Sequence record: OQ626344 | Reading direction: 5' to 3' (one strand) | Source: Escherichia phage S127 BCL3 | DNA: 64,000 bases | In this document: positions 36,088 to 39,171 of the stretch, piece by piece | How the letters are laid out: every line of letters begins with the position of its first letter | Numbering within the stretch: the stretch's first letter is position 1 | Notes under the pieces: model-generated | Told to the model about the DNA's origin: nothing | Database searches by the model: none | What the model saw: the letters and a program-made list of their open reading frames with translations, nothing else | Translations under genes and position numbers: made by a program

Positions 36088-36311
36088 TGAAAGTTAAAGT
36101 TTTAGATTCAAGCTTCTATATTGGTCAGGAGCCCTTAGTGGGGAAAGTGTTTACCGCTATCCCTAACGAAGATTATCCTGACCTTTTAAAAATAAAAGGT
36201 GCAGATCTTATTGCCGCTGGTGCATCCCAGGAATGCTTTGACAGTCAGTGGACCTACAACTTTGCCCTAGGGGAGGATGTGGAGATAGTGGAGGACGATC
36301 ATGAAGGTTAA
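36084..36311 (+). CDS. small acidic protein, expanded family member B
   Basis: MMKVKVLDSSFYIGQ start, DLIAAGA block, C-terminal VEIVEDD. Confidence 0.55.
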   Translation: MMKVKVLDSSFYIGQEPLVGKVFTAIPNEDYPDLLKIKGADLIAAGASQECFDSQWTYNFALGEDVEIVEDDHEG

Positions 36312-36558
36312 AATTCTTGACTCTAACGTCTACTTGGGACAATCCTTCCTGAAAGGAAAGGTCGTACCTGCTGTATACTTTGAAGGGTTGCCGTGGGATG
36401 ATCCTGTGCGGCAAAATTTTCGCGGATATGTAGGCCACAATGTGGTGTTCATCTTAGGATCAGACCTGATTGCGGCTGGTGCCCCAGAATATTATTTCGG
36501 AGAGGAATCGTATTATGCCTTTGGGGTAGGATTAGATGCAGATATTTTAGAGCTGTGA
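36301..36558 (+). CDS. small acidic protein, expanded family member C
   Basis: MKVKILDSNVYLGQ start, VVFILGSDLIAAGA block; overlaps B by 11 nt. Confidence 0.55.
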   Translation: MKVKILDSNVYLGQSFLKGKVVPAVYFEGLPWDDPVRQNFRGYVGHNVVFILGSDLIAAGAPEYYFGEESYYAFGVGLDADILEL

Positions 36559-36570
36559 TGGGGAACTGTT

Positions 36571-36969
36571 GTGAAAAATAAACTGTTCAAAGTTACAATG
36601 AAAATTCGCGGAGCTTGGAGCGTAAAGCAAGGGCGTATTCCAGAATTTGAGAAAGACTTCTACGTAGTCTCCACCTCTGAAGAGGCTGCATGTTGGCAGG
36701 CTGGTTATGCCTATGCAAGAACCTGGTACGAAGGATACCAGACTGGAGGCTATGACGGAGAAATTGTCAGTAAGGGTGTGGAAGAAATTAATGTGTTGAC
36801 AAGTGAAAAAGTTTTTGTTATAGTGCATCCTGATTCCAGAGTGAAGCATTACTGGAATGCCAGAACAAAAACCTGGACACCGTTTGCAGATTCTGCTACA
36901 CCACTTTTAAACCAGAAAGCTCTTGACTCTGCCCCAAGCTATGGGGTTGTTGAAGAAAAGATAAGCTGA
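36571..36969 (+). CDS. hypothetical protein, paralogue of 38776-39171
   Basis: Shares VIVHPDSRVKHYWNARTKTWTPF with VMRHPHSNIAYYWDVLNNEWTPD of the paralogue. Confidence 0.5.
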   Translation: MKNKLFKVTMKIRGAWSVKQGRIPEFEKDFYVVSTSEEAACWQAGYAYARTWYEGYQTGGYDGEIVSKGVEEINVLTSEKVFVIVHPDSRVKHYWNARTKTWTPFADSATPLLNQKALDSAPSYGVVEEKIS

Positions 36970-36986
36970 AATAGTGGGGTGCTTAC

Positions 36987-37277
36987 ATGATGGATTTAGT
37001 TTTGGACGCTGATAACACCGGATCGTTTAAAAAAGATGGTGTAATAGGCATGGACCAATCCTGCGATGCCAAGATTGACTCAAAATGGACCTACAAGTTT
37101 GACGGTGAGATCTTCGCAAATGATGAGAAGGTCGTGGATGCTGTAGCCATTTTAAACGCTTTAGGGTATGACCCTGTGAACTCATTGATCAAGGATCCTG
37201 TTGAGTTTGCAGAGTATGTTCGTAAAATGGCAGATCTTGCAGTAGATATTTTAAAAACTATCGACAACAAGTTGTAA
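36987..37277 (+). CDS. hypothetical acidic protein
   Basis: 96 aa ORF ending just before promoter. Confidence 0.45.
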   Translation: MMDLVLDADNTGSFKKDGVIGMDQSCDAKIDSKWTYKFDGEIFANDEKVVDAVAILNALGYDPVNSLIKDPVEFAEYVRKMADLAVDILKTIDNKL

Positions 37278-37283
37278 AAACTG

Positions 37284-37312
37284 TTGACACGACGCTGAAG
37301 ATTTAGTATCAT
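37284..37312 (+). promoter_or_regulatory. sigma70-like promoter upstream of hpf-like gene
   Basis: TTGACA-N17-TATCAT, then hairpin AGAGGGG-ttggt-CCCTCT and AAGGAA RBS. Confidence 0.55.
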
Positions 37313-37358
37313 TGTTTTCAAAGAGGGGTTGGTCCCTCTTCTTTAAAAGGAACACATT

Positions 37359-37670
37359 ATGCAAATTGAAATCACTGGCAACGTAGAAATCACTGAAGGT
37401 ATGGTGTCTTTCATTTCCAACAAAATGTCCAAGCTGGAGCGTTTGCACCCCTCTGCCAACTATGCACGTGTGAGTGTAAAAGTTGAAAATGATCACCAGG
37501 AAGTTATGGCTTTCATTTTTGACACTTCTGGAAAAGAAGTTATCGCCAAAGCTAAAGGTAGTGATGCTTACGAGGCAACTGACCGTATGGTAGATGTTGC
37601 AGCACGCCAGTTGGCTAAGTGTGGTGGAAAGAAAGGTAAGGGAAAAGGTAAAGTAAAGATTGACTTTTGA
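37359..37670 (+). CDS. hpf: ribosome hibernation promoting factor (HPF/YfiA family) homologue
   Basis: MQIEITGNVEITEGM, KLERL, RVSVKVEN and AKGSDAYEATDRMVDVAARQL parallel E. coli HPF (MQLNITGNNVEITEAL ... AEGQDMYAAIDGLIDKLARQL). Confidence 0.7.
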   Translation: MQIEITGNVEITEGMVSFISNKMSKLERLHPSANYARVSVKVENDHQEVMAFIFDTSGKEVIAKAKGSDAYEATDRMVDVAARQLAKCGGKKGKGKGKVKIDF

Positions 37671-37813
37671 GATTGAGGTGCTACAATAGGCACGATTAAG
37701 AAATTAATCCCAAATGTAGAGATTGCATGCTTTGAAATTATGTTTGCAATCGCAGTTGTAGTTAATGTGTTAGGTTACGGCTATTAATATCAAATAATTG
37801 AGGAGACCTCTAA

Positions 37814-38083
37814 ATGAAAATTAAATTATTCCAAACTGAGCTGGCAGACAAAAACTGTGGACTGGTTGAAGGCATGATCGTTGAAGCACAACCAGTTGAC
37901 TACATGAAGGTTGTTCGTGATGCCCTGGGTGAAGGTTTTGATCTGATGGAGCCAGCTCTGCGAGAAGATGTCATCGAGATGGCTAAAAAGCACACACCGG
38001 AAGGTTTGGTGGTGTTTGTTGCTCCGGGTAATGGAGAGGAGTTGATTGTAACTCCGGATGTGTATGAGGTTGTAGAAGAGTAA
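37814..38083 (+). CDS. small acidic protein, expanded family member D
   Basis: MKIKLFQTEL start, C-terminal LVVFVAPGNGEELIVTPDVYEVVEE; GAGGAGA RBS. Confidence 0.5.
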   Translation: MKIKLFQTELADKNCGLVEGMIVEAQPVDYMKVVRDALGEGFDLMEPALREDVIEMAKKHTPEGLVVFVAPGNGEELIVTPDVYEVVEE

Positions 38084-38175
38084 TCCTGCTTGGGTTGGAA
38101 TACTTTCCTCGACAAGAAATGTTTATAATTATTTGTGGGAAAGGAATCCCCATCTCTTACCAGAGGTGATACTAT

Positions 38176-38439
38176 ATGATTGTTTATTTTAAAACTTCAG
38201 GTGGATACCCTGATTCTCAAAGCTTGATTGGAAAAACGTGCACAGCATACTCGCCTCTTGATGAGGAGGTAAGCGGTATCCTACAAGATATGTATCGGAT
38301 TGATCCCCAAGAAGCTTTTGATCAAAACCTTGTATTTGTCAAAGGCTCAGACATGAAGTCTTTGGGGGCATTCCCTGAAGCAGATGATGATGCTGTTTAT
38401 TCGTTTATGACACCTTTTGAAGCCATGATTGTAGGGTGA
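38176..38439 (+). CDS. small acidic protein, expanded family member E
   Basis: 87 aa; NLVFVKGSDMKSLGAFPEADDD block. Confidence 0.5.
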   Translation: MIVYFKTSGGYPDSQSLIGKTCTAYSPLDEEVSGILQDMYRIDPQEAFDQNLVFVKGSDMKSLGAFPEADDDAVYSFMTPFEAMIVG

Positions 38440-38443
38440 GAAT

Positions 38444-38776
38444 ATGAAAGTACGCTTTATTGGTGAAACAATTCCTGTGCATCTCCGGTCTCCTGAAGAC
38501 TCTGCAGATCTTGCATCTCAAAAGGCGCGAGGGTATGATAAGAAAGTAATCTCAAGCAATGTAGAGCTTGAGGCCACCAGTCTACCTGACCCAGCTGCAT
38601 TCTTCAATCATTATGGCTACTATTTTAGCAATCTGATGAATATTGGTGAGCTTGTGTTTATTAGTGGTGGAGAGATAGTTAGCAAGCTTGGTGGAGATCC
38701 AGATATCTTTCATGAAACCTGCCCTTTTGCATTTGTGGTGGGTTCAGATGTGGAAGTTATTGAGGAGGTTCGGTAA
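38444..38776 (+). CDS. small acidic protein, expanded family member F
   Basis: ELVFISGGEIVSKLGG...FAFVVGSDVEVIEEVR aligns with member C. Confidence 0.55.
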   Translation: MKVRFIGETIPVHLRSPEDSADLASQKARGYDKKVISSNVELEATSLPDPAAFFNHYGYYFSNLMNIGELVFISGGEIVSKLGGDPDIFHETCPFAFVVGSDVEVIEEVR

Positions 38777-39171
38777 TGGTAAGTCTATACCGTGTTGAGT
38801 ATAGCTCGGATACTGTATACAACGTAAGAAGCAAAGATCGCAGTGATAGAGTGCAAGAAATGTATGTTCTTGCAGACAGTCCGTTATCTGCAGCGTTTAA
38901 GGCAGGAGCTCTTGCATCTCGTTGGAAATTCGAGGGCGGATCTTTCTATGAAGAAACCCTTGAAGATTCTGTTGTTATTTCTTCTGTAGAGGTTTCAACT
39001 GACTACGAAGGGAAAAAGTTCGTAATGCGGCACCCACACAGTAACATTGCGTACTACTGGGATGTTTTGAACAATGAGTGGACTCCTGATATTCAGAAGG
39101 CCACTGTTCTAACCCCATTCCTGGCAGATAAGTTCCCACCAGAAGGTAATTTATCTGCACTGTTTCAGTAA
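38776..39171 (+). CDS. hypothetical protein, paralogue of 36571-36969
   Basis: Shared HPHS...YYW...EWTP C-terminal block; same position after a family member. Confidence 0.5.
   Translation: MVSLYRVEYSSDTVYNVRSKDRSDRVQEMYVLADSPLSAAFKAGALASRWKFEGGSFYEETLEDSVVISSVEVSTDYEGKKFVMRHPHSNIAYYWDVLNNEWTPDIQKATVLTPFLADKFPPEGNLSALFQ

Follow-up and report, generated by a model that had tools for sequence, protein, structure and literature searches.

Two gene pairs in an accessory block of an rV5-like phage

When the same two-gene arrangement occurs twice in a phage genome, was a functional pair duplicated, and do its two proteins act together? This question is raised by Escherichia phage S127 BCL3 (record OQ626344), of which we analysed a stretch of 64,000 nucleotides (the window). 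A preliminary description of this DNA noted that a small gene, here called C, is followed by an ORF of 132 aa (X), and that 2 kb downstream a second small gene, F, is followed by an ORF of 131 aa (Y); it read this as the segmental duplication of a functional pair. The window is that of an rV5/FV3-like Vequintavirus, with 94–98% nucleotide identity to about 120 phage genomes. All four ORFs were confirmed on the + strand, where the description had placed them, and the peptide motifs that it quoted were found. The genes concerned, including further members of an array to which C and F belong, are:

A, 32527..32760, + strand: 77 aa, array subfamily 1, phrog_5009 (E 2.5e-36), 3.3 kb upstream
B, 36084..36311, + strand: 75 aa, subfamily 1, tandem neighbour and closest paralogue of C
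C, 36301..36558, + strand: 85 aa, acidic (pI 4.5), subfamily 1, phrog_5009, predicted SH3-like small beta-barrel
X, 36571..36969, + strand: 132 aa, pI 7.8, orphan family phrog_7379
o36987, 36987..37277, + strand: 96-aa gene after X
Ribosome hibernation factor homologue (Ribosomal_S30AE), 37359..37670, + strand: PF02482, E 1.1e-12, above the curated cut-off
E, 38176..38439, + strand: 87 aa, subfamily 1, directly upstream of F, phrog_13920 match and weak phrog_5009 match
F, 38444..38776, + strand: 110 aa, acidic, subfamily 1, own cluster phrog_13661
Y, 38776..39171, + strand: 131 aa, pI 4.85, phrog_7379, paralogue of X

A, B, C, E, F, X and Y lie in the same one-strand block of small accessory genes, whose many ORFs are tightly packed and often overlap, and which are probably early genes. 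Candidate promoters lie at 37284–37312 and 39190–39218. The 3' end of B and the start of C share 11 nt, and X starts with GTG 12 nt past the stop codon of C. The stop codon of F (TAA) and the ATG of Y overlap as TAATG, a Shine-Dalgarno sequence (GAGGAGG) lies within the 3' end of F, and from this overlap F and Y are predicted to be translationally coupled, or at the least co-translated. Between the two pairs sits the ribosome hibernation factor homologue, for which the GenBank records carry the same annotation. Compared with a diverged relative, all genes are under purifying selection (dN/dS 0.04–0.16; 0.06 for X).

X and Y are paralogues of one orphan family

Judged by their sequences, X and Y are clear, ancient paralogues. 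BLASTP aligned them at 26% identity over 123 columns (E 4e-9), the Smith-Waterman score was 112 against 28 ± 5 for shuffled sequences (z 16.5; reached in 0 of 2000 shuffles), and HHalign gave a probability of 98.7% (E 2.4e-16). The protein-level similarity between the two downstream ORFs, on which the preliminary description had made the duplication depend, is thus present. PHROGs already treats them as one family, phrog_7379, with end-to-end matches for both X (E 2.1e-73, residues 2–131 of 132) and Y (E 6.4e-66, residues 1–131 of 131).

Profile searches with X and Y of 1.8 billion representative proteins, together with a word-indexed profile search of 5.8 billion, returned only two diverged full-length relatives, and a scan of genome contigs gave no matches. 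P0008 is a divergent orthologue of X (39% identical) and P0007 of Y (40%), and both match phrog_7379 as well (E 1e-25). Two large repeat proteins, P0010 and P0011, were rejected as relatives, their likeness being due to low-complexity 'YYWTV' and 'GWEHY' repeats. On present sequence data, the X/Y family is confined to rV5-like phages, which are myoviruses.

C and F belong to a family of small acidic proteins

The alignment of C with F that had been proposed originally holds, and their homology is seen only by sensitive methods. BLASTP with composition statistics gave a non-significant E of 0.32, on an alignment other than the one first quoted; the non-homology that this suggested was overturned by Smith-Waterman shuffles and HHalign. 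The full Smith-Waterman alignment, which is the one first quoted, scored 67 against 26 ± 4.5 for shuffles (z 9.2; 0 of 2000), and the profile–profile comparison (HHalign) gave a probability of 95% (E 2.9e-8) over 39 C-terminal columns. F has a long insertion at its N-terminus and shares homology with C in the C-terminal module. The same two methods provide the only tie between F and subfamily 1. PHROGs unites A, B and C in phrog_5009 with end-to-end matches (B, E 2.2e-38; C, E 4.1e-31), a family that E matches weakly (1.2e-4) and F does not match, and it puts F (phrog_13661) and E (phrog_13920) apart, likewise with end-to-end matches, the link to C appearing only by profile–profile and Smith-Waterman comparison. 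HHalign connects E with A (4.8e-6) and with C (8e-6).

Within the window, the best-scoring paralogue of F is C, by both HHalign and Smith-Waterman; the nearest paralogue of C is B (BLASTP E 1e-13; HHalign E 1.2e-16). In the family alignment, an insertion in the middle of the protein and two motifs, LP..DP and VVF/LVF, are common to C and F and missing from A and B. In a neighbour-joining (NJ) tree, E pairs weakly with F, and B with C (55–66% support), and the identities between paralogues are all about 25%, and saturated. A, B, C, E and F are five diverged paralogues of one family of small, strongly acidic, putative SH3-like beta-barrel proteins. For C, AlphaFold2 predicted a five-stranded small barrel that looks SH3-like (pLDDT 93) and whose structural neighbours are uncharacterised small phage proteins only.

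HHalign found no link between subfamily 1 and a second subfamily of the array (D, G, H, I and J; 5.5%), so the two should not be handled as one proven family. As hidden relatives of X/Y or of the array, N96 and N120 (genes of related phages, see below) and a 132-aa ORF upstream of A scored below 1%. Note that the N-terminus of o36987 (DSKWTYKF) weakly resembles the C-terminal module of B (BLASTP E 0.022; HHalign 32%) and that a nucleotide repeat, D7, connects the two genes; this likeness is possibly a relic of recombination. Recombination between family members does occur, since B/C chimeric proteins are present in public data.

Searches of Pfam, NCBIfam, PADLOC and PDB sequences with X, Y and the array proteins gave nothing above chance. 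Anti-defence and defence models (PADLOC, Pfam) matched none of ten proteins, save for a chance-level match of o36987 to Cas11a (E 0.02), and in the literature we found neither a description of these genes nor genome-wide fitness data for any Vequintavirus. Restriction-modification systems are reported to be exceptionally effective against the Vequintavirinae (PMC8594841), which makes it improbable that the acidic proteins serve as effective DNA mimics against restriction.

The pairs are split in related phages

The claim that the paired proteins act together found no support in related phages, which split the pairs. The gene orders of the three known lineages are:

Window and other Vequintavirus genomes: B C X o36987 HPF D E F Y
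L002 (uncultured): B C N96 o36987 HPF D E F Y
L005 clade: N99 N120 X' ... D G H J

L002 keeps B and C and lacks X, in whose position stands an unrelated 96-aa gene (N96). In the nine L005-type contigs X' is directly preceded by the unrelated N99 and N120, and B, C, E, F and Y are absent; X' overlaps N120 in these contigs and is fused to it in L019. No pseudogene remnants were found. The C-X adjacency is thus broken in both L002 and L005, while F-Y, which L002 retains and L005 lacks, is the only conserved junction. N96 is a homologue of N99 (about 33% identity, E 1e-15), at a level typical of orthologues between these two lineages. By parsimony from only three lineages, their common ancestor had N96/N99 between C and X, and the present C-X junction looks secondary, formed by loss of the intervening N96-type gene.

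Moreover, the cultured phage Bas59 has a natural 3.7 kb deletion that takes B, C and most of X, with F-Y retained, and it plaques on E. coli K-12 despite this loss. A is the only subfamily-1 member kept in all three lineages, and its type recurs elsewhere among E. coli phages (siphophage mEp515) and E. coli prophages, all of them without an X/Y homologue. Co-occurrence at the level of the families is not refuted, since no lineage carries X/Y and lacks subfamily 1 altogether.

Age and origin of the duplication

Nucleotide self-comparison of the region, equivalent to the dot-plot that had been proposed as a check, gave no trace of a duplication. There was no similarity between the C-X and F-Y pairs (best blastn E 1.3 at word size 7), and the repeat search revealed neither a repeat linking them nor duplication junctions. 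Any duplication is therefore old. In addition, the identity across lineages is about 40% among X-type orthologues and likewise among Y-type orthologues, compared with about 26% between the types, which places the X/Y duplication before the split of the three lineages.

The two pairs are homologous and match in order and orientation. Under a model of random gene order, the chance that X and Y would both stand directly after a subfamily-1 gene is about 0.02 in a block of 33 genes and 0.07 in a block of 14. A single old segmental duplication is plausible, at roughly even chances, since X and Y are clear paralogues, C and F are homologous and the best paralogue of F is C. It is not provable, because the nucleotide trace is missing, C is closest to B, in the NJ tree C joins B and F joins E with weak support, and the ancestor carried N96/N99 between C and X. 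Of the duplication first proposed, the paralogy of both pairs therefore stands and the single event does not reach proof.

Taking the evidence as a whole, we lean slightly towards the view that C-X and F-Y are not a conserved functional unit, and by a similarly small preference we regard the pairs as leftovers of ordinary gene-family turnover among accessory genes. The block would have evolved as genes were duplicated locally, recombined with members of their own family, were deleted or were replaced. The pairs could have arisen, with the two routes about equally probable, from one old segmental duplication (for example, if array members crossed over unequally and an X-type gene travelled with them) or from separate events, and the loss of the N96-type gene would have brought C and X together. 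Purely by inference, each protein, dispensable and working alone, would bind or modulate host factors in host take-over or counter-defence, with the paralogues covering different targets, and the X/Y and array proteins would be non-essential host-interaction proteins.

A less probable account is that X/Y were duplicated, or one copy acquired, apart from the growth of the array, and that their adjacency to C and F reflects the density of array genes and deletions, such as the loss of N96, that joined neighbours. The reconstructed ancestor, with N96 (and N120) between C and X, favours this, as do the NJ groupings and the saturated identities; furthermore, two small-protein families supply 9 of the 14 genes in 36.0–40.5 kb, so adjacency to some member would be expected with a chance of about 0.39. 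However, adjacency to subfamily 1 specifically has a chance of just 0.02–0.07, two methods give C as the best match of F, and the insertion and motifs common to C and F are absent from A and B.

It is unlikely that a functional module, consisting of a small SH3-like partner and an X/Y-type protein (as adaptor and effector, or inhibitor and target), was duplicated as a unit and then formed two specificity pairs. The collinearity of the pairs, the paralogy of X and Y, and the coupling of F with Y, whose adjacency is kept in L002, argue for it; and since F matches C best and both stand directly upstream of X/Y, at the low chance given above, duplication as a unit, and even some functional link, are possible. 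Yet L002 has C without X, X' has no adjacent array member and overlaps or is fused to the unrelated N120, Bas59 is viable after the joint loss of B, C and X with F-Y kept, other phages have A-type proteins and no X/Y, and the nearest relative of C is B, not F. We consider it more doubtful still that the C/F-type proteins are cognate partners (chaperones, adaptors or antidotes) of X/Y, forming two diverged specificity pairs of an undescribed host-take-over or counter-defence module. Weaker again is a variant in which X/Y would act on the ribosome, suggested by the low-confidence model of X, which resembles the eL20/LX and PurS folds, and by the hibernation factor homologue between the pairs.

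Significance and comparison with known systems

The main value of the gene-family turnover that we favour lies in what it says on the evolution of accessory arrays, with ancient paralogy, differential loss by lineage, chimeras of members and natural deletions, a result that will not surprise specialists. B, C and X are flagged as dispensable, which is of use for annotation and phage engineering. Were the pairing functional, it would give access to two orphan families that are conserved across more than 100 rV5-like E. coli phages, which are therapeutic candidates.

The predicted barrel of C is like the SH3-like and KOW-like small beta-barrels over 47–55 residues, the length over which the model superposes on OapB (7k9b), PsaE, Spt5 KOW and eukaryotic SH3. 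The pairs resemble toxin-antitoxin or inhibitor-partner cassettes in being two small adjacent genes, translationally coupled in the case of F-Y. Unlike such cassettes, they have no toxin, antitoxin or defence domain, their partners separate in relatives, their copy number is low and they lie within the accessory block of a virulent phage. Large virulent phages carry arrays of paralogous small accessory genes in their early or host-take-over regions, such as the early-gene clusters of T4 and SPO1. Although library searches revealed no homology to any characterised early protein, the genes studied here are like those arrays in being small, packed, on the same strand, acidic, dispensable and variable among relatives, with local paralogy.

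X and Y are paralogues of an orphan family

The preliminary description proposed that the genes C-X and F-Y represent the segmental duplication of a functional pair. The four ORFs were found at the positions it gave, inside a long series of small, tightly packed plus-strand genes.

Features of the locus (window coordinates)
32089-32487, + strand: conserved 132-aa protein (phrog_5748), directly before array member A
36301-36558, + strand: C, first pair
36571-36969, + strand: X (132 aa), first pair
36987-37277, + strand: o36987, a 96-aa gene after X
37284-37312, + strand: near-consensus sigma-70 promoter-like site (11/12 matches), ahead of the hibernation factor gene
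37359-37670, + strand: ribosome hibernation factor/RaiA homologue (PF02482, E 1e-12), between the two pairs
38444-38776, + strand: F, second pair
38776-39171, + strand: Y (131 aa), second pair
39190-39218, + strand: near-consensus sigma-70 promoter-like site (11/12 matches), just past Y, within an 8-bp inverted repeat

X and Y are homologous at the protein level (BLASTP 26% identity, E 4e-9; Smith-Waterman z 16.5 against shuffles). In support of this, both match phrog_7379 end to end, and the profiles of their orthologues align in HHalign at 98.7%. Two profile searches, one that read all of 1.8 billion representative proteins and one that went through 5.8 billion proteins by a word index, recovered two Vequintavirus clusters, fragments and two diverged full-length proteins, and nothing else. 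One of these proteins, P0007, is Y-like (40% identity to Y, 26% to X); the other, P0008, is X-like (39% to X, 25% to Y). Since identity is higher within each type than between types, the X/Y duplication came before these lineages separated, and the paralogy is both genuine and ancient. X and Y form an orphan family, with no match in Pfam, NCBIfam, PADLOC or PDB sequences. Note that the phrog_5748 protein, which precedes A in the window, in L007 and L014 and in the L005 clade (both described below), has no similarity to X or Y, although it is equally long.

C and F belong to one of two array subfamilies

The likeness of C and F is also borne out. Smith-Waterman recovers the C-terminal alignment first proposed (z 9.2, 0/2000 shuffles) and HHalign joins the two at 95% (E 2.9e-8, 39 columns); BLASTP gives E 0.32 and a differing alignment. 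Thus, with the ORF positions and both homologies in place, the original sequence observation is confirmed. By profile comparison the small array proteins, all strongly acidic (pI 4.0-4.7), fall into subfamily 1 (A, at 32527-32760, with B, C, E and F) and subfamily 2 (D, G, H, I and J), and the comparison shows nothing that connects the two groups (5.5%). Within subfamily 1 the HHalign E-values (B-C 1e-16, A-B 3e-11, C-F 3e-8, A-C 4e-8, C-E 8e-6, B-F 5e-5, E-F 2e-3) make the tandem neighbour B the nearest relative of C, and C the top match of F. A neighbour-joining tree groups (B,C) and (E,F) weakly (55-66% support); inter-paralogue identities are all near 25%, so this branching order is tentative. 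In PHROGs, X and Y already share one family, and A, B and C another. A-type homologues outside rV5-like phages occur in mEp515 (gp54) and in E. coli prophages (P0042, 309 member sequences).

Many array members share an acidic '…VEE' C-terminus, coded by GAGGAG-type sequence (36290-36300, 38762-38768, 39843-39853 and 40176-40186) that doubles as the Shine-Dalgarno site of the overlapping next gene. The common ending may thus be due in part to translation signals, not to protein homology.

Public assemblies also hold chimeric subfamily 1 proteins: P0025 and P0029 carry a B N-terminus and a C C-terminus, and P0038 an mEp515-type (A-type) N-terminus and a B C-terminus, all joined at the conserved G-x-DLIAAGA motif. 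These indicate recombination between paralogues, or else assembly chimeras. Residues ~20-50 of o36987, in its N-terminus (…CDAKIDSKWTYKFDGE…), resemble the C-terminal module of B (…CFDSQWTYNFALGE…), and a 27-nt stretch is 78% identical between 36238-36264 and 37075-37101; this N-terminus may be a relic of a subfamily 1 gene.

The locus within the genus

Nucleotides 36000-39300 are 94-98% identical to about 120 Vequintavirus genomes in GenBank, among them rV5, FV3, B9-1, ECP26 and several BASEL phages. The FV3 equivalents (FV3_00132 to FV3_00141) are annotated 'hypothetical protein' throughout, except for one RaiA/ribosome hibernation factor homologue. Against L007, a diverged Vequintavirus contig, dN/dS is 0.04-0.16, so all genes are under purifying selection. 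Related genomes carry a DNA methyltransferase and a ClpP-like protease immediately upstream of the accessory block. A TTGACA-N17-TATAGT site similar to the promoter-like sites lies downstream of X', the X counterpart of the L005 clade; overall, such sites are not enriched compared to shuffles. Eighteen GenBank 'Campylobacter phage' records (MG0656xx; host C. jejuni) are ~94% identical to this rV5-like region, and their host labels look doubtful.

The B-C-X block is intact in 115 of the 118 genus records, and Y is present in 118. Bas59 (EduardKellenberger, BASEL; L023, MZ501061.1) has a natural 3.7 kb deletion, about window 33163-36883, which removes about ten genes, B, C and X among them, and joins the o32757 homologue to the final 33 residues of X (L023 3135-3602; fusion product annotated 'putative glycosidase'). 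This isolate is viable and retains F-Y without C-X. The phage was both recovered and grown on E. coli K-12, a host on which it can thus do without B, C and X.

Gene order in three lineages

The contigs encoding P0007 and P0008, plus viral and metagenome scans, gave three lineages.

Gene order by lineage (HPF, hibernation factor homologue; N96, N99, N120 and X', genes of the relatives)
Vequintavirus (window, L007, L012-L018): o35803 B C X o36987 HPF D E F Y G H I J
L002 clade (124 kb contig from an E. coli assembly and two Logan contigs): o35803 B C N96 o36987 HPF D E F Y [extra gene] G H I J
L005 clade (nine metagenome/viral contigs, 40-141 kb): A ... o35803 N99 N120 X' ... D G H J

Relatives of the L002 and L005 types are absent from the isolate database, where they find matches of only ~70%, patchy nucleotide identity. 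The L002 clade lacks X, whose position is occupied by N96, an unrelated 96-aa gene. The L005 clade, the most diverged of the three, lacks B, C, E, F, Y and the hibernation factor homologue kept by the other two; its X' is coupled to the unrelated, phrog_2510-like N120 by a 14-nt overlap. N96 and N99 are homologous (~33% identity, E 1e-15), and N96, N99 and N120 do not resemble the array or X/Y proteins. Searches by tblastn found neither pseudogene remnants nor, in the window, a homologue of N96 or N120.

In one of the nine L005-clade contigs (L019, 6650-7384), one nucleotide is missing from a CCC run, compared with L020, L021 and L005, and N120 and X' are thereby fused in frame in a 244-aa ORF; the fusion may be real or a homopolymer sequencing error. 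L005 and L006 carry an insertion in their accessory region (9532-10644), an IS605 OrfB/TnpB-like gene (PF01385, PF07282) that sister contigs, for example L009 and L010, lack.

Duplication, pairing and a possible role

The two pairs are homologous at the protein level and share no nucleotide similarity. A single duplication carrying a C/F-type and an X/Y-type gene is plausible, since F is most like C, the two pairs have the same gene order, and both adjacencies would arise by chance with a probability of 0.02-0.07. However, N96/N99 and X are each common to the L005 clade and one other lineage, so by parsimony both would be ancestral, in the order C - N96 - (N120) - X, and the present C-X junction would result from the loss of N96. 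This reconstructed order argues that C and X were apart at the last common ancestor. The suggestion that the paired proteins act together is not supported for C-X, which do not consistently co-occur or stay adjacent across the lineages. The F-Y junction has a TAATG overlap and a GAGGAGG Shine-Dalgarno inside the final F codons; F and Y are at least translationally coupled. Overall, the locus is an ordinary example of old gene duplication and of turnover among phage accessory genes.

A literature search found no description of these genes. We infer that C, X and their kin are small, conserved, non-essential proteins of an accessory gene block shared with a hibernation factor homologue. Most likely, the array and X/Y proteins would bind or modulate host factors in take-over or counter-defence, and the paralogues would cover different targets. 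Anti-restriction DNA mimicry is unlikely, because the Vequintavirinae are reported to be exceptionally sensitive to restriction-modification systems (PMC8594841).
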